DNA from: Oceanispirochaeta sp.
GTDB taxonomy: Bacteria > Spirochaetota > Spirochaetia > DSM-2461
Reading direction: 5' to 3'
NCBI GenBank assembly: GCA_963663385.2
Contig: CAXXXD010000001.1
Span: 96,001 to 160,000 of the forward strand
DNA length: 64,000 nt
The position numbers were made by a program, and so were the translations under genes. The notes beneath the pieces were generated by a model that worked only from the letters and a program-made list of their open reading frames with translations, did no database searches and was not told where the DNA came from. Below are positions 26,346 to 47,691 of this stretch, piece after piece. Position 1 is the first letter of the stretch, and each line of letters starts with the position of its first letter.

Positions 26346-26450
26346 TCTGTTTACCAGCAGACTCCCGGGCAGTCCGGGGGGCTGTTATTTATTTTTCAGG
26401 CTGGTCGCAAGCGGAGCTTGCTTCCCGCCTATGCAACCTAGGAGACTCCA

Positions 26451-27638: not shown

Positions 27639-27732
27639 CAAACAGATATTCATCCGGTACGGCAGTATCCCGTTCCGGATACCCCCCGCTGCAGTCAACC
27701 GGCGGCAGTATTGATCACCATGGAGGAATATA

Positions 27733-29031
27733 GTGAAAATTCTGATACAGGGAGGACAAATCCTGACAATGGCTCAGGATGAACCCGAAATACTACAGAC
27801 GGATATCGGTATCGACAACGACAGGATTGCCTTTATCGGCGCTCCTTCAGCCGGATTCAAAGCAGACAAAACAATAGATGCCTCGGACACCCTGATAATG
27901 CCCGGTCTCGTAAATGCCCATACGCATATATCCATGTCCCTTCTGCGCAGCTACGCCGATGATCTTCCCTTCTGGGAATGGCTCTTTGAAAGAATTATGC
28001 CCGTTGAAGAGAACATGACCTCCGAATTTGCCTACAACGGGGCCCGTCTGAGCCTGATTGAGATGATAAAGAGCGGAACCACCACCTTTGCTGACATGTA
28101 TTTTTTTATGGACAGGGTCGCCCAGGCGGTGGAAGAGAGCGGTGTCAGAGCCAATCTGTCGCGGGGCGCGACTTTCATCAATGGCGACAGCGACCTGGAT
28201 AAACTGGATGAATCCGAAGAGTTTTTTACTAAGTGGAACGGCAGAGCCGATGGCCGTATTAAAGTGGATATTGCCCCGCACGCCCCCTATACCTGCCCTC
28301 CCAAATACATAAAACTCTGCGGAGAACTGGCCCGGAAGCTGGGAACCAACATTCATATCCACCTGTCCGAAAGCCGCAAGGAGGTTGAGGACAGCAGAAA
28401 GGAACACGGGAAATCGCCCATTCAGCATGTGCATGATCTGGGACTTTTTGATTCCCGTACCTATGCGGCCCACTGTGTCCATATTTCCGAAGACGATATA
28501 AAAATCATGGCGGAAAAGGGTGTTACAGCAGTAAACAATCCCACAAGCAACTTCAAACTGGCCAATGGATTCGCCCCTGTGACAAAACTCCTTGAAGCAG
28601 GTGTGAATGTGGCTCTCGGAACAGACGGTCCCGGCTGCAATAACAACACCAATATGTTTGAAGAGATTAACCTGGCGGCTCTGGCCAACAAGGCTGTCGA
28701 GGAAAATCCAACAGTAGTTCCGGCTTATACAGCTCTTAAAATGGCCACTGTTAACGGAGCGAAGGCTTTAGGACTGGAGGATGAAATCGGTACTCTGGAA
28801 AAGGGAAAGAAAGCCGATATGATACTGATTGACCTGAAAAAGGCTCATTTCTATCCCCGGTATAACCTGATATCCTCCCTGGTTTATTCTGCACAGGGAT
28901 CAGATGTAAAAACGGTACTCTGTAACGGCAGGATTCTTATGGAAGATTACAAACTGCTTACTCTGGATGAAGAAACAGTATTCAGGGAAGCAGAAATATC
29001 AGCCCGTAAAATGACAGGAGAGATGGCATGA
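27733..29031 (+). CDS. mtaD: 5-methylthioadenosine/S-adenosylhomocysteine deaminase (MtaD paralogue 2)
   Basis: NAHTH, APHAPYT, HIHLSES, AHCVH, GTDG motifs; in operon with mtnA and mtnP. Confidence 0.85.
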   Translation: MKILIQGGQILTMAQDEPEILQTDIGIDNDRIAFIGAPSAGFKADKTIDASDTLIMPGLVNAHTHISMSLLRSYADDLPFWEWLFERIMPVEENMTSEFAYNGARLSLIEMIKSGTTTFADMYFFMDRVAQAVEESGVRANLSRGATFINGDSDLDKLDESEEFFTKWNGRADGRIKVDIAPHAPYTCPPKYIKLCGELARKLGTNIHIHLSESRKEVEDSRKEHGKSPIQHVHDLGLFDSRTYAAHCVHISEDDIKIMAEKGVTAVNNPTSNFKLANGFAPVTKLLEAGVNVALGTDGPGCNNNTNMFEEINLAALANKAVEENPTVVPAYTALKMATVNGAKALGLEDEIGTLEKGKKADMILIDLKKAHFYPRYNLISSLVYSAQGSDVKTVLCNGRILMEDYKLLTLDEETVFREAEISARKMTGEMA

Positions 29032-29795
29032 GAAAAGCAATAATCGGCGGAACCGGAGTTTATGATACCCCGGGAATGACCCGCACAGAAACAGTTAATA
29101 CCAAATACGGTAATGTTGAGGTGGATATTGTAAAATGGGAGAATGAGGAAATTGTCTTTCTGGCAAGACACGGAAAAGGCCATTCGGTCCCCCCCCATCT
29201 GATCAACTACAGAGCCAATATGATGGCGCTCAAACAGCTGGATGTCAGTCATATCTATGCAACCTGTGCCGTAGGTTCCTGCAACAGAAACTATGCCCCC
29301 GGAGATACTGTGATTATCAGAGATTTTCTGGATTTCACCAAAATCCGCCCGGTAACGTTTTTTGACGGAGAAGAAGGTGTCAAGCATACCGATATGTCAG
29401 ATCCCTACTGTAAAAACCTGAGGGCCCTATACAGCAGGGAGGCCGCTAAAGAGGGCATTGAGATCAAGGGGGATGCCGTATACGTCTGCACCGAAGGACC
29501 CCGGTTTGAAACAGCCGCCGAAATCAGAATGTATGAAAAGATGGGCGGGGATGTTGTGGGAATGACCAATGTTCCGGAAGTGCAGCTGGCCAAGGAGCTG
29601 GGGATATGCTATGCCGCCGTAGGGCTGATTACAAACTGGTGTACCGGCTTCGTGAGCGATGACATTGTGATCCATGACATTATGGCAACCATGGCAGCCA
29701 ACAAGGATGCCATTACAAAGCTTTTTCTGTCTATTCTCTCAAATGATCCGAAGCGGGATAAATGCAGCTGTCGGAATGCCGTTATGGATATGTAA
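29028..29795 (+). CDS. mtnP: Methylthio-nucleoside phosphorylase, probably S-methyl-5'-thioinosine (6-oxopurine) type
   Basis: IIGGTG, LARHG..H..PPH.INYRAN, EGPRFETAAE, VGMT; ITNW instead of MTAP TDYD. Confidence 0.88.
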   Translation: MRKAIIGGTGVYDTPGMTRTETVNTKYGNVEVDIVKWENEEIVFLARHGKGHSVPPHLINYRANMMALKQLDVSHIYATCAVGSCNRNYAPGDTVIIRDFLDFTKIRPVTFFDGEEGVKHTDMSDPYCKNLRALYSREAAKEGIEIKGDAVYVCTEGPRFETAAEIRMYEKMGGDVVGMTNVPEVQLAKELGICYAAVGLITNWCTGFVSDDIVIHDIMATMAANKDAITKLFLSILSNDPKRDKCSCRNAVMDM

Positions 29796-30044: not shown

Positions 30045-31235
30045 ATGAGCAGAGAACTCATCCGTCATCTATCAAGTGAACTGGCGGCCCTTCATGAACA
30101 GGGTCTGTATAAATCCGAACGGATTATCACAACGCCTCAGCAGGCGGATATTAAAGTAAAAGACGGCGGAGAAGTCCTGAACTTCTGCGCGAATAACTAC
30201 CTGGGGCTGTCGAATAATCCCGAGTTGATAAAAGCGGCCCAGAAGTCATTGGAAGAGTACGGCTACGGCCTGTCCTCTGTTCGGTTTATTTGCGGAACCC
30301 AGACCATCCATAAGGAACTGGAAGCCAGGATCAGCTCTTTTCTGGGAACGGAGGATACCATACTCTACTCCTCCTGCTTCGATGCCAACGGCGGTCTGTT
30401 TGAAACCCTGCTGGGTCCGGAAGACGCCATAATCAGCGATGCCCTTAACCATGCCAGTATCATCGACGGCGTCAGGCTCTGTAAAGCCCGGCGTTTCCGC
30501 TACGCCAATAACGATATGACCGAACTGGAAACCAGACTGAAAGAAGCCCGTACAGCCCGTTTCCGCCTGATTGCCACAGACGGCGTGTTCTCCATGGACG
30601 GCACAATAGCCAACCTGAAAGCCATCTGCGATCTGGCAGACAAATATGACGCCCTGGTTATGGTGGACGACTCTCATGCCGTCGGGTTTATGGGAGAAAC
30701 CGGCGCGGGAACCCCCGAGTTCTGCGGAGTGAAAGACCGGGTGGATATTATCACCGGAACCCTGGGCAAAGCTTTGGGCGGAGCCTCGGGAGGATACACG
30801 TCCGGAAAAAAAGAGATCATCAGCTGGCTCAGACAGCGCTCAAGACCATATCTGTTCTCAAACTCTCTGGCTCCTGTCATGACAGCCACGGCTATCCGCA
30901 CCCTGGAACTGCTCCAGGAATCAAGCGAACAGAGGGACCGGCTGTTCTCTCACACCCGTCTGTTCCGCCGTTCCCTGAAAGAAGCCGGGTTCAATATTGT
31001 GGAAGGAGAACACCCTATCGTTCCCCTGATGCTGGGAGACGCGGCTCTGGCTGTAAAAATGGCGGGGATTCTCCTGAACAAGGGAATCTATGCCATCGGA
31101 TTCTCCTACCCGGTGGTCCCCATGGGAGCCGCCCGTATCCGTTTCCAGATGTCCGCAGGCCATACGGAGGAGCAGGTAAAATATGCCATTGAAAAGATTA
31201 TCGAAACCGGGAAGGATCTGGAGATAATAAAATGA
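30045..31235 (+). CDS. kbl: 2-amino-3-ketobutyrate CoA ligase (glycine C-acetyltransferase)
   Basis: [41 protein letters not shown]. Confidence 0.96.
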
Positions 31236-32257
31236 AAGCACTGTCCAAACTGAAAAAAGAAGAAGGCCTCTGGATGATAGACGCTCCCGAACCGGAGTAC
31301 GGTCCCAATGACCTTCTTATTAAAATCAAGATTACCGCCATTTGCGGTACGGATGTTCACATCTACAACTGGGACCACTGGTCACAGCAGACAATCCCTG
31401 TTCCCATGATTACCGGTCATGAGTTTGTGGGAACCGTTGAAGCCATGGGAAGCGAAGTGGCCGGATTCAAAATCGGCGACCGGGTTTCCGGCGAAGGCCA
31501 TATTACCTGCGGTCACTGCCGGAACTGCCGGGCCGGAAAGCGGCACCTCTGCCGTAATACGGAAGGAATCGGGGTAAACAGACAGGGCTGCTTTGCGGAG
31601 TACCTGGTTATGCCCGCCTACAATGCCTTCAAGCTGGATGATTTTATCTCCGACGAAACAGCGGCCATTTTTGATCCCTTCGGCAACGCCGTTCATACGG
31701 CCCTCTCCTTTGACCTTGTGGGAGAGGATGTGCTGATCACCGGAGCCGGTCCCATCGGGATAATGGCGGCATCCGTTGCCAGACATGCCGGAGCCCGTTA
31801 TGTCATTATTACGGACGTAAATGAATACCGTCTGAACCTGGCCCGTCAGATGGGCGCTACCCGGGCTGTCAACATACAGACAGACAAACTGGAAGATGTA
31901 ATGAGCGAGCTTCATATGCTGGAAGGTTTTGATGTGGGACTGGAAATGTCCGGGAATGTCCGGGCTCAGCATCAGATGTTCAGGATGATGAATAACGGCG
32001 GACGTGTAGCCCTGCTGGGGATCCCCCCGGGGGAATCACCGGTTGACTGGAACCAGATTATCTTCAAGGGGCTCCAGCTGAAAGGGATCTACGGCCGGGA
32101 GATGTTTGAAACCTGGTACAAGATGGCCGCCATGATCCGCTCGGGTCTGGATATCAGCCGGATTATTACCCACCGCATGTCTGTGGATGAATTCAAGAAA
32201 GGATTCGACATTATGCGTTCAGGTCAGTCCGGAAAGGTCCTGTTGTACTGGGAGTAA
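31232..32257 (+). CDS. tdh: L-threonine 3-dehydrogenase
   Basis: [39 protein letters not shown]. Confidence 0.96.
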
Positions 32258-32354: not shown

Positions 32355-33389
32355 TCAGGAATTAAAAGCGGCAGATAACCGTGTCCTGTATGTATCCAGA
32401 ATCACGGCCAAAATAATAATCACCCCTGTTACGATCTGCCTTGCGAAATCACCCATTCCAATCAGAAGCAGTCCGTTATTCAGAACCCCCATTATGGAAG
32501 CGCCCAGAAAGGTTCCTACAAGAGATCCCTTTCCCCCGCTCATACTTGTGCCGCCGATAACAACAGCGGCAATGGCATTCAGCTCAAAACCGACTCCCAG
32601 AATGGGACTGGCTATGCTCATACGCAGCATATACATTATCGTCGCAACCCCGACGGTTCCGCCGCAGATGGTATAAGCCATGACTTTATAGAGTTTTACA
32701 TTATGGCCGGACAGACGGACAGACTCTTCATTGTTTCCGATGGCAAAGATCATTCGGCCGAAAACTGTCCGTTTAAGAATAACCGACCCCAATACCACCA
32801 GAATCAGCGCAATCAGAAAGATGGCCGGAAGAACCCCGAAATAGGTGGTAGTTCCGAAATCATTAAACATTTTCGGAAAATTGAAAATGGTTTTGGAGTG
32901 GCTGATCTGAAGGGCCAGACCTCTGGCAATATTCAGCATCCCCAGGGTCACGATAAAAGAGTGGATTTTCCAGGTCTCTGATATAATTCCATTTAAAAAA
33001 CCGATTATCATACCCGAGAGGATACTCAGCATTACGGCCAGAACAATGGCAGCCCCGAATGACAGGGAAGGTGATATCAGGATCTTGCCTGCAATAATGG
33101 AACAGAGAGCCAGTACGGATCCTACAGACAGATCGATTCCTCCCAGCAGTATAACAAATGTCATTCCTACTGCTATAACAGTATTGATACTGATCTGGGT
33201 GAATATATTTGCAACATTTATCAGAGAAAAAAAGCGGGGAGCTCCGATGCTGAATGCGACAACAAGCCCCAGCAGAATAATTCCGATTCCGACTTCCTTC
33301 AGAAAAATATTCAGAAGCGATCGCATGGGGGAATTGTTTTTTCTCCCGGGATCCACGCTGATTTCATTACCTACATTTCCATTACTCAT
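32355..33389 (-). CDS. Monosaccharide ABC permease (RbsC family)
   Basis: GGIDLSVG, TLGMLNIARG, GNNEESVRLSG, ELNAIAAVVIGGTS. Confidence 0.93.
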   Translation of the reverse strand: MSNGNVGNEISVDPGRKNNSPMRSLLNIFLKEVGIGIILLGLVVAFSIGAPRFFSLINVANIFTQISINTVIAVGMTFVILLGGIDLSVGSVLALCSIIAGKILISPSLSFGAAIVLAVMLSILSGMIIGFLNGIISETWKIHSFIVTLGMLNIARGLALQISHSKTIFNFPKMFNDFGTTTYFGVLPAIFLIALILVVLGSVILKRTVFGRMIFAIGNNEESVRLSGHNVKLYKVMAYTICGGTVGVATIMYMLRMSIASPILGVGFELNAIAAVVIGGTSMSGGKGSLVGTFLGASIMGVLNNGLLLIGMGDFARQIVTGVIIILAVILDTYRTRLSAAFNS

Positions 33390-34890
33390 TCAGATATTCC
33401 TTATAGGAAAGATTCAGTATTGTTTCCGGATCAAACTGATCCCGTTTTACTTCTCCTGTTATTTTGCCGTCTGAAAAAACAAGGATTCTGTGACAGATCC
33501 CCATAAGCTCCGGCAGATCGGAGGAAACCATAATGATGCCTCGCCCCATGGCAGCCAGCTTCCATAACAGCAGGTATATTTCGTATTTCGCCCCCACATC
33601 TATACCACGTGTGGGTTCATCAAAAATAAAAACATCAGAATTCCTGTAAAGCCACTTCCCGATGAGGATCTTCTGCTGATTCCCGCCGGACAGGTAAAGA
33701 GTTTTCTGATCGATACCGGGAGTTTTTATATTCATCTCCCGAATCTGTTTTTCTGTAACTTCTTCCTCCATAGACCGGTTAAGAAAACCTTTGCAGGAGA
33801 CATCTTTCAGATTCGTGATCGTTGTATTATCCACGCAGCTCATTTCAAGAATGAGCCCTTGTGTTTTCCGGTCTTCCGTCAGCAGACACAGCCCGCTGTC
33901 AACGGCATCCTTCGGGCATCTGATATTCAGCTTTTTCCCATCCAGGAAAATCTCGCCGGCTTCTTTTGCATCCGCCCCGAACAGGGCTCTCACTGTTTCC
34001 GTCCGGCCCGACCCCACCAGCCCGGCAATCCCCAGTATTTCGCTTTTTTTAAGCTCAAAGGATTTTGGATGGGGAGAGCCCTTGTAAACAAGGTCCCTTA
34101 CTGTTAGAAGAGGGGCTGAAGGAACTACGGAATCATCAAACGGATACTCCGACTCCATAGTCCTCCCTACCATCATTTTTACAATGGAAGGGATATCGAG
34201 TTCGGAAGCCTCATCGGTGCCTACCACCTGGCCATTCCTGAGAACCGTAACCCTGTCGCCAATCTGAAAAATTTCATTTAAACGATGAGAGATATAGATA
34301 ATTGTCACTCCATCGGCTTTAAGTTTTCTCAGCAGTCCGAACAGGTTATCAATCTCATCGGGCATCAAGGTTGCCGTTGGTTCATCCAGGATAAGGATCC
34401 GGCTTTCTCCCGACAGGGCTTTGGCAATTTCAACAAGCTGCATCTGTGCAACCCCGAGATTCTCAACCAATGTTCCGGGAGACAGTTTTTCCAGACCGAC
34501 CCTTTTCATAATGGCTTCGGCATCTCTATATAAACGGTTGAAATCCACAAGACCGCCTTTTCCCGGCAGTTTTTCAAAAAAGATGTTTTCTGCTACCGAC
34601 AGATAGGGCAGCAGATTAAACTCCTGATATACAACCCGTATACCCTGATTGATTGCTGCAAGCGGATTTTGCGGACAATACGGCTGTCCGGCAAAAATCA
34701 TGTTCCCTCCTGTGGGTGAATAAACACCGCACAGGGTCTTTACCAGTGAGGACTTCCCCGCCCCGTTTTCACCTAAAAGAATATGTACCTCTCCTTCCTT
34801 AACGGCAAGATTTACTTCATCAAGGGCTTTTACACCGGGAAAAGAGAGGGTGATATTATTAAATTCAATTATATTTCCAATGGATCCCAT
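33382..34890 (-). CDS. Monosaccharide ABC ATP-binding protein (RbsA/MglA family)
   Basis: GENGAGKS, LDEPT, second NBD EDRK...LSGGNQQK...DEPTRGIDVGAK. Confidence 0.95.
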   Translation of the reverse strand: MGSIGNIIEFNNITLSFPGVKALDEVNLAVKEGEVHILLGENGAGKSSLVKTLCGVYSPTGGNMIFAGQPYCPQNPLAAINQGIRVVYQEFNLLPYLSVAENIFFEKLPGKGGLVDFNRLYRDAEAIMKRVGLEKLSPGTLVENLGVAQMQLVEIAKALSGESRILILDEPTATLMPDEIDNLFGLLRKLKADGVTIIYISHRLNEIFQIGDRVTVLRNGQVVGTDEASELDIPSIVKMMVGRTMESEYPFDDSVVPSAPLLTVRDLVYKGSPHPKSFELKKSEILGIAGLVGSGRTETVRALFGADAKEAGEIFLDGKKLNIRCPKDAVDSGLCLLTEDRKTQGLILEMSCVDNTTITNLKDVSCKGFLNRSMEEEVTEKQIREMNIKTPGIDQKTLYLSGGNQQKILIGKWLYRNSDVFIFDEPTRGIDVGAKYEIYLLLWKLAAMGRGIIMVSSDLPELMGICHRILVFSDGKITGEVKRDQFDPETILNLSYKEYLNE

Positions 34891-34952
34891 TAGAACTCCT
34901 TAGAAAGAACGGGAGGAAGCATACCTTCCTCCCTCTTCTGATACTGTTCGAT

Positions 34953-35906
34953 TTATTTAAAGAAATCCTTATCCGCAAGGATGAGAGGAGACTGAACCCA
35001 GCCGAGGTTCTCCCTTTCTCCGGCAATGATTTCAAATCCTGCATTAAAAGCAAGGACTGCCATTTCGGTGCCATCCATATGAACGGTAGCCAGCATTTTG
35101 TCATTAAGAATTAGATCCTTAACAGCCGGGATATTATCAAACCCTACAACCTGAACATCGCTGCGCCCTGCAGCTTCAAGAGCACGGACAACACCGAGAG
35201 CCATTGAGTCGTTGGCACACATAACCCCCTGAACATCCGGGTGTTTGGTCAGCAGATTTGTCATCAGGGTATTGGCTTCTTCCGCTTCCCAGTGTGCTGT
35301 ATTGGAGGCCAGGAGTTCCAGGCCGTGGGTTTCGATGGATTTCATAAATCCGTTTTTTCTCTGTTTGGCATTATCCGCCCCGGGATTCCCTTCGAGAATG
35401 AATACCTTACCGCCTTCTCCGATTGTTTCGCCCAGATAATTACCGACCATTTCGGCTCCGTCTGTATTATCGGGTCCGACGAACAGAAACTCTTCAGGAA
35501 GGCCGGCCGCCTTCAGTGCATCCTTGTCCAGGGTTACATCAAAATTGATAACCGTAACGCCTGCATCGATAGCCCTTTTAACAGGAGCGACCATACCGGC
35601 TGAGTCGGCAGGAGCCAGAACGATCAGATCAACACCCTGAGTAATCAGACTGTCTACAGCATTTACCTGTGTATCAAAGTCCGTTTCGGAATTCATCCCC
35701 ATTGTTATCAGTTTGAAAGAACCGTCCTCTTCAGCATAAGCTTTTGCGCCTTCATCCATAGCCATAAAAAATTCATTAGCCAGTGATTTCATAATCAGAC
35801 CGACGACCGGTCTGTCATCCTCCTTTTCCTGTTCTCCATTGGCAAAAACAGAAACGGGCATCAGAATTGCGAGTCCCACCAGAACAGCCAAAATTTGTTT
35901 CTTCAT
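34953..35906 (-). CDS. Monosaccharide ABC substrate-binding protein (RbsB-like)
   Basis: Signal peptide ...VFANGEQE; KSLANEFF, ANDSMALG, VGFD; AAGGAG RBS before ATG 35906. Confidence 0.92.
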   Translation of the reverse strand: MKKQILAVLVGLAILMPVSVFANGEQEKEDDRPVVGLIMKSLANEFFMAMDEGAKAYAEEDGSFKLITMGMNSETDFDTQVNAVDSLITQGVDLIVLAPADSAGMVAPVKRAIDAGVTVINFDVTLDKDALKAAGLPEEFLFVGPDNTDGAEMVGNYLGETIGEGGKVFILEGNPGADNAKQRKNGFMKSIETHGLELLASNTAHWEAEEANTLMTNLLTKHPDVQGVMCANDSMALGVVRALEAAGRSDVQVVGFDNIPAVKDLILNDKMLATVHMDGTEMAVLAFNAGFEIIAGERENLGWVQSPLILADKDFFK

Positions 35907-35952
35907 TAGATACTCCTTAATTTTCTCATACAGAGATGTATACCCGCTATAT

Positions 35953-35968
35953 TGCAAACCTTATGCCA
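35953..35968 (-). promoter_or_regulatory. Sigma54 (-24/-12) promoter of the monosaccharide ABC operon
   Basis: Minus strand TGGCATAAGGTTTGCA = GG-N10-GC, ~47 nt upstream of the SBP start; sigma54 activator gene just upstream. Confidence 0.85.
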
Positions 35969-36051
35969 ATACAGAAATATAAGTTCAAAACAGCCTATAA
36001 CAGGGAAAGAGCATAAACCGGAAAAAGATACCGGTCCGCCAGATCTGCAAT

Positions 36052-36091
36052 ATGGACAAACTGTTCAAAACAGATGTCCAGAATATGAACA
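36052..36091. promoter_or_regulatory. Candidate upstream activating sequences for the NtrC-type regulator
   Basis: TGTCCA-N5-TGAACA (36075-36091) plus TGGACA/TGTTCA half-sites, ~85-125 bp upstream of the -24 box. Confidence 0.5.
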
Positions 36092-36096
36092 CACTT

Positions 36097-37917
36097 TCAG
36101 GCTACGGGAATCTTCAGCTCGAAGCGGCAACCGTCCTCAAACTGATTATCCAGGGAAATACTGCCGCCGTAACGATTCAGGATATTATAACAGAGAGACA
36201 GTCCCAACCCGTAATTCTGGTTTGTATTTTTTGAAGATTTGAAAGGAAGAAAAACATCCGTCGAATCGTCAAAGGGGACACCGGGTCCGTTGTCTTCAAA
36301 AAGGATAGAGGCATACTCCCGCCCCTCTTCCCGGCTGATGGAAATAGCGATGACACCGCCTTCCGACAGGACTTCAAAAGAGTTTTTAAACAGATTCAGA
36401 ATAACCTGCTTGAATTCGTTTCTGTTAAAAAGGACCTGAACAGGAACCTCCGAATCCTCCCGGATATGGATTTCAATGTGCTTCTGCTTTCCATTGAACC
36501 GGATCAGGTTCATAAGCTCACGGATTTCATCACTTAAAATAATCAGCTCTTTATTCTCTTTCTGGTTATTGGAAAAGGTGATCAGATTCCCTATGACCTG
36601 TGAGATATAATTGATCTGTTCAAAGAGATAATCAAACACCGCCTCCCGTTCATCCGGCTTTACCTTATTCATCCGGAAGCTCTCAAGATAATTGGAAATC
36701 ACTCCCAGGGGATTATTAATCTCATGAGCCACTCCCGCAGACAGGAGTCCCAGGGACGCCAGTTTCTCCGACAGAATGACCTGATCCCGTAACCGCTCCC
36801 GCTCGGTGATATCTTCAATAATAAAGAGGTTTCCAATCAGTAATGCCCCCTCGTAAATGGGGTATAGAACAATATTGGCCATATACATCCCCTTTCCTGT
36901 CTGAAGGGGAATATTGAACATGGAACGGATTTCGCCGGATGCAGCGGTTTCCTCCAGCAGTTCCGCCGGAACAGGGCTTCCCCCGAAAAGACTTTCGACT
37001 GTCAATTCGGTAAGACTGGTATTATCATCCAGGCAGAAGAACTCCCTGGCGCTGGCATTAACCGTTTTAATCCTGTGATCCGTTCCCAGTACAATCAGGC
37101 TGATGGGAAGCTGTTTAAGGATCACTTCGTTGTACTTGAAGAGATTGCCGAATTCGAGGGTGTGATCCTGTTGATCCTCCAGAGAGGAAAACTGTGTATA
37201 GGCCATTTTGATTAGGCTTATTTTATCCAGATCCTTTACATTTTCGGATAAAAGCAGCTTCCCCTTCCGGATAATGCTTACCCGATCGGCAATCATATAG
37301 AGATCGTCAATCCTGTGGGTAATAAAAAGGATGGCACACCCGGATTTTTTCAGGGCATTAAGGGCTTTGATTACCTTTTCCAGACCGTCGGCAGAAAGCT
37401 TTTCCAGGGCTTCATCCAGGATCAGAACCCTGGGAGGAGTGTACAGATTTTTTACAATACTGAGAAAGGCTTTTTCCGACAGGGGCAGATTCGAGACAGA
37501 ATCCCGGGGATTCAGATCAAACCCGTTCTCTTTTAGAAACATCGCGGTGAGGACGTCGACTTTTTTCTGACTGAATCCCCCGAAGCGGGATTGGAACCTT
37601 TTTTTATTGGCAATGAAGAGGTTTTCAGAAACCGTAAGGGCATCATTCAGCCGGATTTTCTGAAAAACCATTCTGATACCGGCATCTATTGTCTCCTTAT
37701 AAGACATTCTGGCATAAGGTTTATTCTGATAAAATACCGCTCCTTCATCGGGAGAGATCAGGTTGGCGACCATTTTGGCCAGGGAGGATTTTCCTGCACC
37801 GTGTTCCCCGACAATGGCATGGATCTCCCCCTCATGAATAGAAAGGTTAATACCGTCCAGAGCCTTGATACTCCCGTAACAGAGGGATACGTCACGCATT
37901 TCAAGGATACACTTCAT
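36097..37917 (-). CDS. Fusion protein: ABC ATPase (RbsA/MglA N-half-like) - PAS - histidine kinase (HisKA + HATPase_c), no TM segments
   Basis: GEHGAGKS Walker A, VFQ Q-loop, ILDE Walker B, ITHR switch; PAS ending EDITE; H-box AHEINNPL; N-box QVILNLFKNS; DNGPG and GLGL G-boxes; ATG 37917 immediately after the RR stop. Confidence 0.9.
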   Translation of the reverse strand: MKCILEMRDVSLCYGSIKALDGINLSIHEGEIHAIVGEHGAGKSSLAKMVANLISPDEGAVFYQNKPYARMSYKETIDAGIRMVFQKIRLNDALTVSENLFIANKKRFQSRFGGFSQKKVDVLTAMFLKENGFDLNPRDSVSNLPLSEKAFLSIVKNLYTPPRVLILDEALEKLSADGLEKVIKALNALKKSGCAILFITHRIDDLYMIADRVSIIRKGKLLLSENVKDLDKISLIKMAYTQFSSLEDQQDHTLEFGNLFKYNEVILKQLPISLIVLGTDHRIKTVNASAREFFCLDDNTSLTELTVESLFGGSPVPAELLEETAASGEIRSMFNIPLQTGKGMYMANIVLYPIYEGALLIGNLFIIEDITERERLRDQVILSEKLASLGLLSAGVAHEINNPLGVISNYLESFRMNKVKPDEREAVFDYLFEQINYISQVIGNLITFSNNQKENKELIILSDEIRELMNLIRFNGKQKHIEIHIREDSEVPVQVLFNRNEFKQVILNLFKNSFEVLSEGGVIAISISREEGREYASILFEDNGPGVPFDDSTDVFLPFKSSKNTNQNYGLGLSLCYNILNRYGGSISLDNQFEDGCRFELKIPVA

Positions 37918-37918
37918 A

Positions 37919-39235
37919 TCAGTCGCCAAGTCCGGCAATATCATACTTTTTCATCCTGCTGTACAGGGTCGTTCGGCTGATATTCAGGGATTCGGCAACC
38001 TTCTTCTTGTTGAAATTTGCCTTTAAGAGCTCCCGCAGGATTGTCTCCTTCTCTGAGCGTTCCAGGGGTGTTTCATCCCGCCCCTCTTCTTCAATCACTT
38101 TTTGAAACTTCGTGGGAAGGCATTCTATTCCGATCGTGCCGTTTGACGATATGGCTGAGGCATAGTTCATTGTGTTCTTCAACTCCCTGATATTGCCGGG
38201 CCAGGAATACCGTAAAAAGAGTTCAAGCACCTCATCCTTCAATACACAGGACGCCGTTCCATTCTCCATGGCGTACTCGTCCATAAAATGTTCAGCCAGA
38301 AGCGGGATATCGGTAATCCTTTTCTTGAGAGGAGGGACTGTCAGGATGGCCGCATTCAAGCGGTAGTAAAGGTCCTCCCGGAATCGCCCGAGAGCAATAA
38401 GATCTTCCAGTTTTTTATTTGTAGCTGAAATGAGTTTCACATCGACCTTGATCAGGTCCTTACCGCCCAGGCGATACAGCTCCCTGTTCTGAAGAACCCG
38501 GAGAACTTTGGCCTGCACTTCCATGGACATATCCCCGATTTCATCCAGAAAGAGGGTCCCGCCGCTGGCTCTTTCAAAAACACCTTTATAACTTGCATGG
38601 GCTCCCGTATAAGCGCCCTTTTCATGGCCGAACAGTTCATTATCCAGAAGGTTGTCGGGAAACGCCGCACAATTCACTTTTATAAAAGGCTTATCGGCCC
38701 GGTTCCCGCTGGAAAAAATGAAATCCGCAAACAGCTCCTTTCCTGTTCCGTTTTCACCATACAGCAGAATGGGAAGATTCCCCGAAGCCAGTTTGAGTAT
38801 TGTTGCCTTCAACTCCTCAACACCCGTATCCCGGCTTACAATCCGGGAATCCGGAAAACAGTCAGGCTGTCCGGCACTGTCGATGACGTTGGCAATTTTC
38901 TCATAGAGGATTTTGTATTTCACAGGCTTAAGAAGATAATCGACCGCTCCATACTTCATGGATTCAACTGCGGTTTCTATAGTGCCGAACCCGGTCAGCA
39001 TAATAACCGGTACGGCAGGATACTCCTTTTTCAGCATTTTCAATACTGACAGACCGGATTCTGATCCCAGTTTCATATCCAGCAGAATCACAGAGATTCC
39101 TCCCTGACTCAGTACGGGAAGAGCATCCGCACTGCTCAGGGCATAGAGGATTTCAAGAGTCTCATCCCCCAGCATACGGGAAAGGCTCATACAGAATTGT
39201 TCATTATCATCAATTATCAGAATACTGTGTTGCAT
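37919..39235 (-). CDS. Sigma54-dependent response regulator (NtrC family)
   Basis: REC (IIDD, LLDMKL, KP), AAA+ GENGTGKE, ELFGHEKGAYTGA, LFLDEIG, WPGNIRELKN, Fis HTH. Confidence 0.95.
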   Translation of the reverse strand: MQHSILIIDDNEQFCMSLSRMLGDETLEILYALSSADALPVLSQGGISVILLDMKLGSESGLSVLKMLKKEYPAVPVIMLTGFGTIETAVESMKYGAVDYLLKPVKYKILYEKIANVIDSAGQPDCFPDSRIVSRDTGVEELKATILKLASGNLPILLYGENGTGKELFADFIFSSGNRADKPFIKVNCAAFPDNLLDNELFGHEKGAYTGAHASYKGVFERASGGTLFLDEIGDMSMEVQAKVLRVLQNRELYRLGGKDLIKVDVKLISATNKKLEDLIALGRFREDLYYRLNAAILTVPPLKKRITDIPLLAEHFMDEYAMENGTASCVLKDEVLELFLRYSWPGNIRELKNTMNYASAISSNGTIGIECLPTKFQKVIEEEGRDETPLERSEKETILRELLKANFNKKKVAESLNISRTTLYSRMKKYDIAGLGD

Positions 39236-39309
39236 CGAAACCTCTTGCAGTATTTCAAAGGGTGCAGGGCGGCTGTTTGAATTGTGAAGGACGCAGACCT
39301 GCGCCCACT

Positions 39310-40185
39310 CTATTTCAGTTCGGAAATAAAAGGGATGGAATCCATTGCCCCCGGCCTGGATACGGTAATGGAAGAGGCCAGAGTCGCCCTCTCCATAGCC
39401 TCCCGCACGGCCATTCCCTCCAACCGGGACGCCAGAAAGTAACCGAAAAACGTATCTCCGGCTGCCGTTGTATCCACAACAGGAGAGTCTACAATGGGAA
39501 CAAATTCCCGCTGTCCGTCCCTGCCGAACCAGGCACCGGCCTTACCGGCGGTCAGAAGGATGCTGAGTCCGGGGAACATCCCTACCAGACGATCCAGAGT
39601 CTCTTCATAGCTGCCCTCTTGTCCGGCCAGATCCGCCCCTTCAATCTCGTTGACCACAAGGAGGTCCAGTTTATCCAGGGGCCAGGTTTTCACATCTTTC
39701 GTATAGGGAGCCGGATTCAGGCAGACTTTCATCCCCTTTCCGTGAGCTTTTTCAATAATGTAGGAGGTTAAATTCACTTCATTCTGAAGAACCAGATAGT
39801 CTCCCTCTTCAAAATACCCGAGAACTTTATCTATATGAGTCTTGTCGTTATTCCGGTTCCCGCCGCCGAACAGAACGATGGAATTCTGCCCTTCATCGGA
39901 TACCTGAATAATGGCCTGTCCGGTCATCCCGTCATACTGCCTTATCAGATCGGTTCTCACATTGTACTTTTTCAGGAGGTCCAGCAGCCATAAACCGTCG
40001 TGTCCGATTGTACCGGCATGCCAGATTTCTGCTCCCGCTTTTGCCAGAGCCACCGACTGGTTGGCCCCTTTGCCTCCGGCATTGGTACTCACGTCCGAGG
40101 CGGAAATTGTTTCACCGGGCTGTACAATATGGGCGACCTTGTAAACAATATCGATATTCAAGGATCCATAATTTAAGATTTTCAT
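39310..40185 (-). CDS. rbsK: Ribokinase (PfkB family)
   Basis: GSLNID, GGKGANQ, LQNE, NPAP, NEIE, DTTAAGDTF. Confidence 0.88.
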   Translation of the reverse strand: MKILNYGSLNIDIVYKVAHIVQPGETISASDVSTNAGGKGANQSVALAKAGAEIWHAGTIGHDGLWLLDLLKKYNVRTDLIRQYDGMTGQAIIQVSDEGQNSIVLFGGGNRNNDKTHIDKVLGYFEEGDYLVLQNEVNLTSYIIEKAHGKGMKVCLNPAPYTKDVKTWPLDKLDLLVVNEIEGADLAGQEGSYEETLDRLVGMFPGLSILLTAGKAGAWFGRDGQREFVPIVDSPVVDTTAAGDTFFGYFLASRLEGMAVREAMERATLASSITVSRPGAMDSIPFISELK

Positions 40186-40223
40186 ATTCTCTCCTGCTTA
40201 AAGGGCCAAGTGGAAAAAGTTCA

Positions 40224-41249
40224 TCAATAAGTGAATTTCCCCAGACTTTCCCTGATTATCAATTCGCTGCCTATAAAGACCTTTTCATAGGGCAGTTTCC
40301 CTTCGGCTGTCATGCGTCTGTTCAGGAGCTGAAAAGCTCTTCTCCCGATCCGGACTTTTGATACTTTAATGGACGCCAGAGGCGGATCGGACATACGGCT
40401 GGAGGGCAGATCGTCAAACCCCACAATGGCCATATCATCAGGCAGAACATATCCTTTTTTTTTCAATGCCTTCATACAGCCGAAGGCGATAATATCGCAC
40501 ACACAGAAAAAGGCCGTCGGCATATCCCGTCCCTCATCCAGACACCTCTCCATATCAAAGGACGCCTTCTCATAGGTGGAATCCACAGAGTAGATCCATT
40601 CATCACGGCAGGACAGGCTGTAATACTTAATCGCTTCCAGAAAACTTTTCTCCCTTAACTTGAAGTTCCGTGTTTCCGCCGAGGATTTCACCAATCCTAT
40701 CTTACGGTGTCCCCTCTTTTTCAGTTCAGCGATAATGGAGTAGACAGCGCCATCATTATCCATATCGACAAAATCAAATGGAAAAACCGGATGACTGGCA
40801 TCGATAAAAACAAGGGGGATTGCCAAAGATTCAAACAGAGGGATATCCGTATCATCCAGTTCTGTAGCCAGTATAACCGCACCTTTGGGACGGGACTCCT
40901 CCAGATCCTTTACTATCTGCACCGGATCAAATCCTGAATAATTCTGGACCTCCAGACTGAACCCGTAATCCCTGGCTTCCTTTTCAAGGCCGTCAATATA
41001 ATCGGAGATAAAGACATTATGATTCCGATTAATGATATGCCCGTGCTTGGCAATCTTTAAAAAACGGATTACACCGCCCGTTTTCCTGCTATTTTCGGAT
41101 ACGGGAATCCGATACCCCATGGCATCTGCTGTTTCAAGCACCAGCTGCCGGGTTTCTTCTCCTATTCCCGGTCTGTTATTGAGTACCAGTGATACGGTTG
41201 AAGGGGAGACTCCTGCCTGTCCGGCCACGTCTCTGATTGTGACACCCAT
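40224..41249 (-). CDS. LacI-family transcriptional regulator
   Basis: TIRDVAGQAGVSPSTVSLVLN HTH, IVGFDD; start probably ATG 41249. Confidence 0.92.
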   Translation of the reverse strand: MGVTIRDVAGQAGVSPSTVSLVLNNRPGIGEETRQLVLETADAMGYRIPVSENSRKTGGVIRFLKIAKHGHIINRNHNVFISDYIDGLEKEARDYGFSLEVQNYSGFDPVQIVKDLEESRPKGAVILATELDDTDIPLFESLAIPLVFIDASHPVFPFDFVDMDNDGAVYSIIAELKKRGHRKIGLVKSSAETRNFKLREKSFLEAIKYYSLSCRDEWIYSVDSTYEKASFDMERCLDEGRDMPTAFFCVCDIIAFGCMKALKKKGYVLPDDMAIVGFDDLPSSRMSDPPLASIKVSKVRIGRRAFQLLNRRMTAEGKLPYEKVFIGSELIIRESLGKFTY

Positions 41250-41303
41250 AGAGAGATAGTACCGCCCCAAATAGGATCTGTCAAATTGTTTTCTAAATTC
41301 CAA

Positions 41304-41325
41304 CTAAACAAACCACTTTGTTTAG
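41304..41325. promoter_or_regulatory. Inverted repeat, candidate operator between the LacI and MFS genes
   Basis: CTAAACAAA-CCAC-TTTGTTTAG perfect 9-bp arms. Confidence 0.45.
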
Positions 41326-41495: not shown

Positions 41496-42668
41496 ATGAC
41501 AGAAAATCGGGCGCATATTGCAGCCTATACAGTTACCTATCTGTTCCTCTTCTCCACACTGGCGGTTGTCTCCCCATTTTACCCGCTGATTCTGCAGCAC
41601 AAGGGCCTGACCCCTTCCCGGATCGGATACGTGATGGGAAGTTACGAGATGTTCAGCATTGCAGGGTTAATGATTTTAGGGCGGTTATTCGACAGATGGC
41701 AGTCCCCCCGGCGAACCATTACCTTAATAGGCCTGGCCTGTATTACGTTCATCTTTCTGGTTACCCGCACGGGCTCCATCCCTCTTGTAATAATTCTGAC
41801 CCTGGGACTTGGATTCCATGTCAAATCACCCACAGCCCTTATGGATGCGCTGTACGGCCAGACCATGAACGATCCGACCAGATCCTACGGCTGGGTGCGC
41901 AGCTTCGGCAGCCTGGGCTTTATTATCACAGCCCTGACCATCCATTTCACAGGAGCGGTACGGGGCAGCCGGCCGGAATCGGTTTTTCTGGTTTACACTC
42001 TGCTGATAGGGATTGCTTTGATAAGCATGAAATGGCTTCCTGTAAACCAGCTTCATAAAACAAGAGAGGACAAACACCTTTCCTTTCTGGATACCATAGG
42101 GACCTTTCCCTCCATTTTCTGGATCGGCTTAAGCATAGCATTTATGAATTCCGTCGGTCAGTCGGGGCATTACACGTTTTTCTCCCTTCTTTTAAAGAAT
42201 AAATTCAATACACCCGGGGTTGGGGTCTACTGGGCTCTGGGCGCCGTTCTGGAAATTCCCCTCTTCCTGTATTCGGGATACCTGCTTAAAAAGCTGTCTT
42301 TAAAGAGGTTATGGCTGATCGGGCTGAGCGCCGGGATTATCAGAATGCAGGTGTACGCCCTGTCGGAGTCGCTGCTTCCCCTGTTTCTGATCCAGATGCT
42401 GCACAGTTTCTGTTTCGGTATCAACCATCTCTGTATGATGACTCTGATTACACAGACCACCTCCCCTTCCAGCAGAGGACTGGCCATGTCGATTTATACG
42501 GCGATCGGTATGGGATTTGCCCTGTTTACCGGAGGAGTTCTGGGTGGATTTATTCTGAACCACAGCGACTTCCGGCACCTTTTCCAGATCATCTCTCTCT
42601 TCCCTTTTATGGGGGTCTGTATCACTTTGTTTTTCCTGAAGGGGCACCGGGAGATTACTTCGGGGTAG
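41496..42668 (+). CDS. MFS transporter (HcaT/nucleoside-permease-like)
   Basis: ~12 TM helices, YGWVRSFGSLGF, LEIP, HSFCFG motifs. Confidence 0.85.
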   Translation: MTENRAHIAAYTVTYLFLFSTLAVVSPFYPLILQHKGLTPSRIGYVMGSYEMFSIAGLMILGRLFDRWQSPRRTITLIGLACITFIFLVTRTGSIPLVIILTLGLGFHVKSPTALMDALYGQTMNDPTRSYGWVRSFGSLGFIITALTIHFTGAVRGSRPESVFLVYTLLIGIALISMKWLPVNQLHKTREDKHLSFLDTIGTFPSIFWIGLSIAFMNSVGQSGHYTFFSLLLKNKFNTPGVGVYWALGAVLEIPLFLYSGYLLKKLSLKRLWLIGLSAGIIRMQVYALSESLLPLFLIQMLHSFCFGINHLCMMTLITQTTSPSSRGLAMSIYTAIGMGFALFTGGVLGGFILNHSDFRHLFQIISLFPFMGVCITLFFLKGHREITSG

Positions 42669-42719
42669 AATGGGTGTAGCTATCTCAACAAGAAATCAAC
42701 TCCGAACAGGCAAATCCCC

Positions 42720-43625
42720 TTACTCAGTCTTACGACGCCCATATCCGCCGGCATTCCCGCTATACCTTTTTTTAAATTCACTGGGAGAGGTATTCAGATA
42801 TCTGCGGAACAATTTATTGAACTGGGAAAGATTCTCAATACCCACCAGACTTGCCGATTCGGTTACCCTGAGGTTCATCTTCAGATAGGTTCCGGCCAGG
42901 TGCATTTTCCGTTCGTTAACGTAGTCGTTTACCGACCGGTTCATGTTTTTATTGAAAAGACGGTACAGGTTGCGTTTCGATGTATTAATACTCTCTGAGA
43001 TCGAATCTGCGGAAATTTTACCTGCCAGATTCTTATCAATATAATCCAGGGCTTTTTCAAAAAGGTCCCCTGCCAGATATTCATGTTTATTACTAGTCTG
43101 TCCGCAAAATATTTCCAGACAGTGAAAAAGGAAATTTTCCACCGCTTTGATATACCAGAAACTGCTGCAATCCCCTTTATTCCCTGCGTATTCTTCAAAA
43201 AAAAGAAAATAGCCGAACAGCTGCCTCTGATCCGCCACCGTGTTTTTATGCTGCTCCAGAAACTGATCAAGGAGCCTCTCTTCATAGCTTACGGAAGTTC
43301 CATTCTTTTTCACACTGATTTCGAACAGGATATAAAAAAGAGTCATGGTATCATTCCTGCCGATATGGATTTCATGATCCTTTCCGGGTTCGGACAGAAA
43401 AAGATCTCCCCCTTTTAGCCGATGCTCCTCATCTTCGTACAGAAAAACACCTTTTCCGTCCAGAACAATGACCAGCTCAAAACAGTCATGATGGTGCATC
43501 TGATTGGAAATCTTCGAATAATCAAACTCATAATATTCGCCGACCCTCACAGAGACAGCGTATTTATTGAGATTTTTCTCCAGCCGGAGATTCGCAATGG
43601 GGCAGGTATCTGTACTGATATCCAT
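42720..43625 (-). CDS. AraC-family transcriptional regulator
   Basis: Cupin HHHDCFE plus C-terminal double HTH. Confidence 0.88.
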   Translation of the reverse strand: MDISTDTCPIANLRLEKNLNKYAVSVRVGEYYEFDYSKISNQMHHHDCFELVIVLDGKGVFLYEDEEHRLKGGDLFLSEPGKDHEIHIGRNDTMTLFYILFEISVKKNGTSVSYEERLLDQFLEQHKNTVADQRQLFGYFLFFEEYAGNKGDCSSFWYIKAVENFLFHCLEIFCGQTSNKHEYLAGDLFEKALDYIDKNLAGKISADSISESINTSKRNLYRLFNKNMNRSVNDYVNERKMHLAGTYLKMNLRVTESASLVGIENLSQFNKLFRRYLNTSPSEFKKRYSGNAGGYGRRKTE

Positions 43626-43750
43626 CCTTCCAATTTATACCCATTTCCAACAATCTGTTCAATATTTATCAACTCTAACTCAATATTTGCAAACAACAAG
43701 GATCCGTTCCCCATCACAATTATAGCAGGTATGACAGAAGGAGAACGAAC

Positions 43751-44809
43751 ATGAATTCAAAAGAACGAGTCTTGAAAGTATTTAACCATGAAATTCCGGA
43801 TAGAGTCCCCGTCTGGTGCGGCATGTCTCCCGAATTTCTGAACAAAGCGAAAAAACACCTCCGTGTTACCGATGACGAAGATGTCTATATCAGATTCCGG
43901 GATGATTTCAGGCGGGTGTACCCGGTGTATATCGGTCCGGCTGAGAGATCCTGGACAGAAGGATTGAGCGCCGGTGCAACCATGAGAACGCCCTTTAATA
44001 TCGAACGGCACGGGTATGGTTACGGACAGCCCCTGTCCCATCCCCTGAAAGACGCAACCATGGAGGACATTGAGAATTACCCATGGCCGGATCCGGAGTG
44101 GTATTCTGCAAAGAACATCGGAAAAGAGGCGGAAAAATGGAACGGGGAATACGCCGTGCTGGGAGGGGACTGGAGCCCCTTCTGGCATGATGCGATGGAT
44201 CTGTTCGGCATGGAAGAGATGTTTGTAAAAATGTATACGGAACCGGAACTGGTCACGGCCGTATTTGACCATATAGTTGATTATTACCGGGGAGTGAATA
44301 AGATAATTTTCGAGGAAGCTTCCGAATATATTGATATACATTTTATGGGAAATGATCTTGGAAGCCAGAACGGCCCCCTGGTCGGGCTCGACCTCTTCTC
44401 CCGCTACATTGCCCCCAGCTTGAAAAGGCTGTCCGATTTGTCCCACAGTTACGGATTGAAAGTGATGATGCACTGCTGCGGCGGCTACGAACCCTTTATC
44501 CCGTCCATGATCGAACACGGACTGGATGCCCTGCAGGCTCTGCAGCCCGATGCGTCAGGGATGGATCCCGAAAATCTCAAGAAGAAGTACGGAAACAGGG
44601 TAATTCTGAACGGCGGCATTGATTCCCATTATGCCTTGATTGAGGGATCGACGGAATCTGTCTGCCGGGCGACAAAAAAGGCTTTGGAGATTTTCAAACC
44701 CGGGGGAAATTACATTTTATCCCCGAGTCATGACTATCTGCTGGAAGAAACGCCCATTGAAAACGTCCTGACCATGTACGATACCGCTTTTGAATTCGGG
44801 GAATACTGA
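43751..44809 (+). CDS. Uroporphyrinogen decarboxylase / MtaA-like methyltransferase family protein
   Basis: MNSKERV...PDRVP start, DLGSQNG, HCCG, GGID, SPSH motifs. Confidence 0.8.
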   Translation: MNSKERVLKVFNHEIPDRVPVWCGMSPEFLNKAKKHLRVTDDEDVYIRFRDDFRRVYPVYIGPAERSWTEGLSAGATMRTPFNIERHGYGYGQPLSHPLKDATMEDIENYPWPDPEWYSAKNIGKEAEKWNGEYAVLGGDWSPFWHDAMDLFGMEEMFVKMYTEPELVTAVFDHIVDYYRGVNKIIFEEASEYIDIHFMGNDLGSQNGPLVGLDLFSRYIAPSLKRLSDLSHSYGLKVMMHCCGGYEPFIPSMIEHGLDALQALQPDASGMDPENLKKKYGNRVILNGGIDSHYALIEGSTESVCRATKKALEIFKPGGNYILSPSHDYLLEETPIENVLTMYDTAFEFGEY

Positions 44810-44818
44810 TAATGGAAT

Positions 44819-44914
44819 AAATCCCTACTTAATCGACCCCGCAACCATCCCCTTGATAATATGCTTCTGCGCCGAAAGAAAGAAGATAATAATCGGGATC
44901 ATGGCCATCAGAAT
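44819..44914. repeat. 96-bp direct repeat, left copy (displaced 3' end of the permease gene 52930-53787)
   Basis: Identical to 52924-53019 except one synonymous mismatch (44885 G vs 52990 A). Confidence 0.95.
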
Positions 44915-45019
44915 AATAGTACGATCTCAAAAAATCTTTTTTTCCAACTGTAACTATAAATTTTGCAGCCTCTACCAGCTCATGAAACATGCTTTTTATA
45001 AATCCGTGTATAATAACAT

Positions 45020-46825: not shown

Positions 46826-46828
46826 ACA

Positions 46829-47593: not shown

Positions 47594-47691
47594 AATTGTG
47601 TACATATCTTAAAAAGATGGAATATCCTGTTATGTAAAGCAATAGTAAGATAATTTCATATTCACGATTCAGTGACAAATGGAGGAACAAA

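Follow-up and report, generated by a model that had tools for sequence, protein, structure and literature searches.

In the known cases in which a histidine kinase senses through a transporter, contact is made by membrane helices, by an adaptor or by a fused symporter. Here we analyse a locus in which the nucleotide-binding domain (NBD) of an ATP-binding cassette (ABC) sugar importer of the CUT2 class occupies the position in a soluble kinase that is normally held by an input domain. The locus lies in a 64,000-nucleotide (nt) stretch of DNA from Oceanispirochaeta sp. (assembly GCA_963663385.2, contig CAXXXD010000001.1), hereafter the window, within which coordinates are given. The kinase gene is flanked by the genes of a sigma54-dependent response regulator and of a CUT2 importer (Table 1). 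This two-component architecture is conserved and apparently undescribed: a search of the full-text literature, with subscription papers mostly outside its reach, returned no description of an ABC NBD-kinase fusion.

The closest described systems each share part of this arrangement. BceRS-BceAB of Bacillota combines a kinase that lacks its own ligand sensor with the neighbouring ABC transporter that it induces (PMC6978683, PMC10314905). BceS, however, is an intramembrane protein of the type with two transmembrane helices and contacts BceB via such helices, whereas the kinase described here is soluble and has an NBD of its own, and its transporter, unlike BceAB, is a CUT2 importer with a BPD_transp_2 permease. 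The output of Bce-type systems is an OmpR-type regulator, in contrast to the sigma54 activator of this locus. In PstSCAB-PhoU-PhoR/PhoB, an ABC importer senses for the two-component system that induces it, with contact on the ATPase side, in the cytoplasm (PMC6978683), but the adaptor PhoU and a membrane-anchored PhoR are needed, and no NBD is fused to the kinase. The SLC5-STAC systems CbrA/CbrB and CrbS/CrbR have a transporter-derived domain N-terminal to PAS-DHp-CA, and CbrB has a sigma54 interaction domain (PMC7918813). There the fused part is a whole membrane symporter and not a soluble ABC NBD; neither SLC5 nor STAC is matched in Pfam by our kinase. The importer resembles RbsABC and NupNOPQ in its binding protein, its tandem ATPase with one degenerate site and its RbsC-like permease (PMC11466899, PMC13739795). 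It differs in its apparent sigma54 two-component control, in place of a LacI-type repressor alone, and in a binding protein below the RbsB cut-off. Finally, the PAS-HisKA-HATPase core and the AtoC/NtrC-like regulator are as in AtoS/AtoC- and ThkA-type systems, from which the NBD in place of a membrane input sets the kinase apart; all equivalog cut-offs are missed here.

Results and discussion

The kinase input position is occupied by a CUT2 NBD

The seven co-oriented minus-strand open reading frames (ORFs) that an earlier reading of this DNA (the original prediction) had described are present at 32355-41249 and have Pfam assignments. The TGA of the regulator ends at 37919 and the kinase ATG is at 37917, so that the single base 37918 separates them, as had been claimed. 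A longer kinase N-terminus, from the ATG at 37944, was considered, but 37917 was preferred.

The kinase consists of the NBD (residues 1-240), a flexible linker, a helix and the PAS, DHp and CA domains. The N-terminal 240 residues align with the first half of such ATPases of CUT2 sugar importers and stop at the start of their inter-domain linker. For the PAS-HisKA-HATPase core, the best NCBIfam match is AtoS, covering residues 261-605, and the best PDB match is 3A0R. All boxes of a class I (HisKA) histidine kinase are found: HEINNP (398), N508/N512, DNGPG (542), FLPF (556) and GLGLS (570). The H, N, G1, F and G2 boxes are invariant across 69 aligned members. The protein lacks a membrane span, its highest 19-residue hydropathy being 1.82, and values above 1.8 occur in only 4 of 74 relatives. 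In an AlphaFold2 model (mean predicted local distance difference test score 80.2; predicted template modelling score 0.43), the NBD is well folded and is followed by a low-confidence linker (241-263), the PAS domain, a long coiled coil and the kinase core; the relative placement of the domains is not fixed by the model. Foldseek and sequence searches relate the NBD to LptB-like domains and the remainder to PAS/LOV kinases, and none of the matches listed is a solved structure spanning both parts.

The origin of the NBD was traced in a tree of 35 representative loci and 24 other ABC domains (supports from FastTree; an arbitrarily chosen other ABC domain as root). The kinase NBDs form a single clade (0.996) that groups with CUT2 NBD1 (0.872), separate from NBD2. 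The kinase domain is 30% identical to the cognate NBD1 and 21% identical to NBD2.

In comparison with a canonical hydrolysing ABC NBD, the Walker A Lys, the Q-loop, the Walker B Asp-Glu and the H-loop are present, while the LSGGQ signature and the D-loop are replaced by LPLSEK and EALEKLS. K43, Q86 and D168 are invariant in 74 kinase NBDs, and E169 is found in 92%. None of these 74 members has an LSGG, and the Pro-Thr of the D-loop is also lost. The Walker A Asn, present in 100% of the ATPases, is His in 95% of the kinase NBDs. From these residues, the domain is predicted to bind ATP. In CUT2 ATPases, NBD2 supplies the signature and D-loop of the working site; a degenerate second site in such ATPases has also been noted elsewhere (PMC11466899, PMC13739795). 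Since the kinase NBD lacks both motifs, it could form a hydrolysing site only with the NBD2 of an ATPase. A hydrophobic Q-loop/ENxF stretch is kept in the 74 kinase NBDs. In importers, this stretch forms the permease groove.

A conserved family with a regulator and a CUT2 importer

The kinase has 714 matches at E<=1e-30, and all 120 of those listed contain ABC_tran, HisKA and HATPase_c. At 50% identity the relatives form many clusters, of which the best 150 representatives are mostly full length. The kinase sequence is identically present in the protein collection, five intact paralogues are encoded in this genome, and the number of copies per genome reaches six. A few members have stops or breaks; although these might speak for an artefact or a decaying accident of fusion, that explanation is already refuted by the number and completeness of the relatives. 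The nearest named homologue among the matches listed is from Oceanispirochaeta crateris (61%).

Members were found in 23 of 38 genomes of the same taxonomic family, in 12 of 301 genomes sampled from the same phylum (four candidates scored per genome) and in 7 of 9 genomes from the phylum to which the KSB3 locus L007 belongs. No full-length kinase was found in 301 genomes sampled in the same way from the phylum of genome G340, where four genomes matched the PAS-kinase part only, or in 5 further genomes, and no plasmid record among the best 5000 covers 80% of the kinase. Single records labelled Desulfomarina and Bacteroidia are short contigs of putative assignment. The family is thus large and occurs in free-living spirochaetes and in KSB3 filaments. 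The latter have been tied to sugar-triggered bulking in anaerobic reactors, in a report of which the available portion mentions neither ABC nor histidine kinase by those words (PMC4312070).

For the analysis of gene neighbourhoods, 95 loci were picked by kinase score alone, giving 94 distinct kinases; the genomes of origin are related, so the loci are not independent. The set holds 47 of 49 places from the same family, 25 of 27 from the KSB3 phylum, the phylum set minus two fragments, and other search matches. The sigma54 regulator lies directly upstream of the kinase in 90/94, the misses being three contig ends and one truncated regulator. A complete CUT2 set of binding protein, ATPase and permease is found within 9 kb of 82/94 kinases (58 divergent, 20 downstream as here, 3 upstream and 1 convergent); three more have a partial set and nine have none, six of these on short contigs. 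Untruncated loci have the full set in 66 of 70 cases. Of the 52 other kinases in this genome, 8 are equally near a CUT2 ATPase.

The linkage of regulator, kinase and importer is seen in Spirochaetes and in the KSB3 phylum. Of the complete seven-gene module proposed originally, however, it is this core that is conserved (82/94), while the lacI-pfkB part is local: the two genes precede the regulator in 5/94 loci, namely here and in L095-L098. In L100, pfkB follows the permease gene, and L099 has neither gene, so that PfkB is adjacent in 6/94 overall. The distances of kinase and regulator correlate at 0.83-0.84, and their assignment as a cognate pair is supported by this correlation.

The four other NBD-kinase/regulator pairs of this genome (Table 1) lie beside a nucleoside importer of the BMP type, an arabinose-like importer and two others, each with a sigma54 motif. 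In two cases (L177 with L060, and L160 with L174), one locus holds two complete modules that stand back to back; in the latter case, one module belongs to clade A and the other to clade B of the kinase-regulator pairs. In L143 (5695-7615) and L178, the ATPase of the linked importer has a single NBD (265-281 aa) and is not tandem. L103 (8962-13568) has a regulator cut to 219 aa, no ATPase gene and no sigma54 motif, so that the whole module seems to have decayed together. In L141, an apparent LacI-type gene and arabinose catabolic genes come after the regulator-kinase pair (by inspection). Protein P0222 is an 851-aa variant with two HisKA matches.

Two loci outside the family, L009 (452-7990) and L014 (8051-17616), combine a sigma54 activator, a CUT2 operon and a sigma54 motif with a membrane kinase. 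In L009 this kinase is of the dCache-HAMP-PAS-HK type, and L014 has a binding protein gene of its own. As the wiring is the same, the NBD would be the input module and the PAS domain a shared transducer. Membrane-sensor kinases (L009, L014, L183-L185) were considered as a sister group, but a tree of the PAS-kinase part did not place them so; replacement of a membrane sensor by the NBD through descent is therefore not claimed, and L009 and L014 serve as an analogy only.

A general search for related loci gave 6 full-length members among 80, the rest being mostly ordinary kinases. Four loci from Acidobacteria with an apparent end-to-end match were dropped, as they encode a membrane kinase and a separate ABC gene. 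Among longer proteins (>1061 aa) matching the kinase NBD, 26 matches were ABC exporters and no kinase fusion was seen, which is weak evidence. In the ESM Atlas, the family is present as automatically named clusters. Clusters of 826-852 aa with the order ABC_tran-GAF-HisKA-HATPase, mostly from Actinomycetota (score 0.83), are possibly an independent NBD-kinase fusion.

The pair very probably controls the importer through sigma54

The regulator has the features of an NtrC-family bacterial enhancer-binding protein: a receiver Asp, an AAA+ domain with a GAFTGA-like loop and a Fis helix-turn-helix. The receiver is intact (DDN 9-11, LLD with Asp53, T81, K103) and the loop reads GAYTGA (residues 207-212), both as originally described. 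Because Tyr is the norm in this position in clade A, to which the locus belongs (36 of 42 regulators), the variant is not a sign of decay. The corresponding F85Y protein of PspF still interacts with sigma54 fragments, although not as the wild type does (PMC3467059).

The genome has rpoN, and the importer operon is preceded by a -24/-12 promoter and an upstream enhancer motif. The GG-N10-GC element of the original prediction was recovered at 35968-35953. When 7 or more of 8 scored positions had to match between -300 and +150 relative to the first gene, the motif stood ahead of 79/85 linked importer operons, compared with 16/511 unrelated ORFs of the same loci and 1/88 regulator genes. For 8 linked operons, the scan covered as many as four leading genes, and the control set can overlook operons headed by other genes, as happened for one linked operon. 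Within this genome, all five linked operons have the motif (one with GT for GC), as against 0 of 38 other tandem-ATPase entries. The strict sigma54 consensus is not rare genome-wide (54 found, 74 expected), so the evidence lies in position and conservation and not in the match alone.

A TGT-N11-ACA motif lies upstream in 42/79 promoters, compared with 3.7 in shuffles. It is found in 38/41 clade A promoters and in 1/30 of clade B, where G(G/T)G-N10-C(A/C)C occurs in 24/30; eight promoters were left unassigned. The enhancer type therefore follows the kinase-regulator clade. Paired sites 30-34 nt apart, resembling the two at this locus, are seen in several relatives. Given linkage, promoter and enhancer, the pair very probably regulates the adjacent importer via sigma54.

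What does the NBD sense?

In the original prediction, sugar passing through the transporter activates the fused kinase in a positive feedback loop. Its last step, control of the transporter by the activator through the sigma54 promoter, is well supported by linkage and by the motifs of promoter and enhancer. That the feedback is positive is an assumption, and we infer that a sensor of load per transporter would be damped by extra transporters.

The kinase would probably read the importer itself, in place of a sugar sensor of its own. We propose that binding protein and permease act as a receptor for the soluble kinase, which would dock via its NBD. A kinase dimer would seat one or both NBDs in the coupling-helix sites of the permease. 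Arrival of a sugar-loaded binding protein, together with ATP binding, would move the NBD, and this movement would pass via the linker helix, PAS domain and coiled coil to His398. Phosphate would then be transferred to Asp53 of the activator, which would bind the TGT-N11-ACA enhancer and open the sigma54 promoter of the importer.

The distances of NBD and permease correlate at 0.20, and the kinase-regulator pair is spread over 23 permease clusters that are always CUT2 importers. Since the linkage survives these switches, what is conserved is the class of transporter from which the NBD came, and not one sugar. The permease coupling motif is conserved throughout the linked importers, which allows docking and leaves its specificity unexplained. 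On balance, we lean towards an NBD that docks on the transporter as an activating input. A number of observations weigh against this. In 35 representatives, the partial correlation of NBD and permease distances was not significant (r=0.10, p=0.16); nor were the kinase NBDs significantly more like their own ATPase NBD1 than shuffled ones (p=0.11). At matched core identity, pairs with the same permease have NBD identities 3-13 points higher, but a single clade, in which the NBDs are fast, confounds this excess. We found no determinant of specificity (2 of 237 NBD columns, 3 of 226 core columns). Generic docking would cause cross-talk, as the genome has 43 tandem-ATPase genes. H201 of the H-loop, present here, is retained in only 69% of the 74 members, and the full-length loci L141, L169 and L170 have no adjacent CUT2 set. 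Finally, the transporter domain of CbrA is dispensable for kinase function (PMC7918813).

The precedent of CbrA, in which the PAS domain is the suspected sensor (PMC7918813), points to another explanation. Here, too, the PAS domain could detect an intracellular sugar or sugar phosphate, at this locus perhaps made by PfkB, leaving the NBD as a scaffold, localisation tag or dimerisation aid. The transporter would then merely be the supplier in an ordinary induction by product. All members have the PAS domain, a sugar kinase is linked in the clade of this locus, and the lack of significant co-evolution of NBD and permease fits as well. Yet the PAS domain does not track the type of transporter (p=0.72 for permease, 0.16 for binding protein) and is the least conserved part of the kinase, whereas the residues with which the NBD would bind ATP do not vary within the family. 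The PAS domain is also present in the membrane-sensor version of L009, and PfkB is adjacent in only 6/94 loci. We therefore regard sensing by the PAS domain as rather unlikely. Alternatively, the NBD could be a free cytoplasmic ATP/ADP sensor, through which the energy state would gate the kinase and starvation would drive import, with no contact to the transporter. The retention of Walker A, Q-loop and Walker B alongside the loss of the motifs of a hydrolysing pair suits such a role. It would, however, have five paralogues beside different importers, each with its own promoter, read one and the same signal, and it offers no account of a linkage restricted to CUT2, the class of NBD origin, which makes it decidedly improbable.

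Contact could also have the opposite sign. An idle transporter may inhibit the kinase via the NBD and let it go once sugar is transported or the real ATPase displaces it, and more transporter would then damp the response. In Pst-PhoU-PhoR and DctA-DcuS, the kinase becomes constitutive when the transporter is lost (PMC6978683), and the anatomy would be the same as for activating docking. But nothing at this locus fixes the sign and no evidence is specific to inhibition, which we consider improbable.

If the NBD docks as an activating input, the form of the complex may be described in more than one way. One tentative possibility is a sensing complex that transports nothing or cycles slowly and has its binding protein and permease in common with the pump; a read-out of the actively pumping complex is a somewhat more doubtful one. 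The former is slightly favoured because the NBD lacks the signature motif and D-loop; judged by these motifs, flux sensing would suit the domain no better than a nucleotide-gated sensing complex. It is also conceivable, again tentatively, that the kinase dimer replaces the ATPase on the permease dimer and makes binding protein and permease a transmembrane receptor. In such a motor-swapped sensor, opening and closing of the NBD would drive the kinase, and the same module could be directed to any CUT2 sugar, as the many switches of partner suggest.

A soluble kinase that takes its input from an ABC motor domain would represent a new principle of coupling. This would tie NBD motion directly to a measurable phosphorylation output, give a handle on CUT2 importers and open a modular route to sugar biosensors. 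Promoter, enhancer and phosphorylation sites are mapped here by sequence.

The importer and its probable substrate

The importer has a Peripla_BP_4 binding protein, a tandem NBD ATPase with one degenerate site and a BPD_transp_2 permease, as expected of the CUT2 class. No relative of the permease was found among solved structures. A pentose- or ribose-like substrate had been suggested on account of the ribokinase. While ribose is plausible, the ribose equivalog cut-offs are missed throughout (bits observed/required: RbsB 161.6/337, RbsA 487/745, RbsC 225/398, ribokinase TIGR02152 221/299.65), and the binding protein is also under the AlsB cut-off. Its best solved relatives are 4YLE (219 bits) and 5DTE (176), followed by RbsB (138) and AlsB (122). 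In 6 of 6 orthologues checked, Met replaces the Gln of the TIAQ stretch of RbsB, a residue that contacts ribose. PfkB is the sole ribokinase-like match in the genome at E<1e-10, and in L096 an RbsD gene adjoins lacI. The substrate is likely ribose or a close aldose, with about an even chance of being ribose itself.

In the clade of this locus, LacI and the ribokinase-like enzyme probably add a second, intracellular layer of control for the ribose-like sugar. The sigma70-type promoter ahead of lacI comes from a scan that overall was at chance level; TTGACA or TTGACG is found at the same position in L095-L098. Half-sites similar to the GTTTA of the candidate operator also precede lacI in these four loci.

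Features of the locus and neighbouring genes

Table 1. Positions of genes, domains and candidate regulatory sites in the window, and of the kinase paralogues of the same genome (coordinates within the named loci).
Feature	Position	Strand	Details
CUT2 permease, RbsC-like, 344 aa	32355..33389	-	Pfam BPD_transp_2; coupling motif GNNEESVRLSG
CUT2 tandem ATPase, 502 aa	33382..34890	-	tandem ABC_tran; NBD1 with Walker A, NBD2 with LSGGNQQ
9-bp stem-loop	34911..34933	-	between binding-protein and ATPase genes
CUT2 sugar-binding protein, 317 aa	34953..35906	-	Pfam Peripla_BP_4; ribose/allose-like fold family
Candidate sigma54 -24/-12 promoter	35953..35968	-	TGGCAT-AAGGT-TTGCA (TGGCATAAGGTTTGCA); 47 nt before binding-protein ATG at 35906
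Second, imperfect candidate enhancer	36042..36058	-	33 nt downstream of the first; read from sequence
Candidate enhancer	36075..36091	-	TGTTCATATTCTGGACA (TGT-N11-ACA); 123 nt upstream of the -24 element
Soluble NBD-PAS-histidine kinase, 606 aa	36097..37917	-	Pfam ABC_tran-PAS_4-HisKA-HATPase_c; His398
PAS domain, kinase residues 270-369	36811..37110	-	Pfam
CUT2 NBD1-derived domain, kinase residues 1-240	37198..37917	-	Walker A GEHGAGKS, Q86, Walker B DE, H201
Sigma54-dependent response regulator, 438 aa	37919..39235	-	Pfam; REC Asp53, AAA+ with GAYTGA, Fis helix-turn-helix
PfkB ribokinase-like sugar kinase, 291 aa	39310..40185	-	Pfam; accessory
LacI-family regulator, 341 aa	40224..41249	-	Pfam; accessory, confined to the orthologous clade of this locus
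Candidate sigma70-type promoter for lacI, perhaps also pfkB, regulator and kinase	41256..41284	-	TTGACA-17-TACTAT; 10/12 matches
Palindrome, candidate operator	41304..41325	.	CTAAACAAA-N4-TTTGTTTAG; just upstream of lacI promoter
Kinase paralogue	L001:6957-8777		beside a different CUT2 importer
Kinase paralogue	L002:6158-7996		beside a different CUT2 importer
Kinase paralogue	L003:10055-11863		beside a different CUT2 importer
Kinase paralogue	L004:11152-12966		beside a different CUT2 importer

A kbl-tdh-like pair (aminotransferase class II and Zn dehydrogenase, 30045-32257) is convergent on the permease gene and is also found downstream in L097. Beyond it, at 25545-29795, lie a Met-lyase-like enzyme, an amidohydrolase and nucleoside phosphorylase-like genes (by inspection). 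On the other side, 41496-48939 begins with an MFS transporter, an AraC regulator and a URO-D-family protein (Pfam), followed by an apparent membrane kinase, a response regulator and a sugar-binding protein (by inspection).

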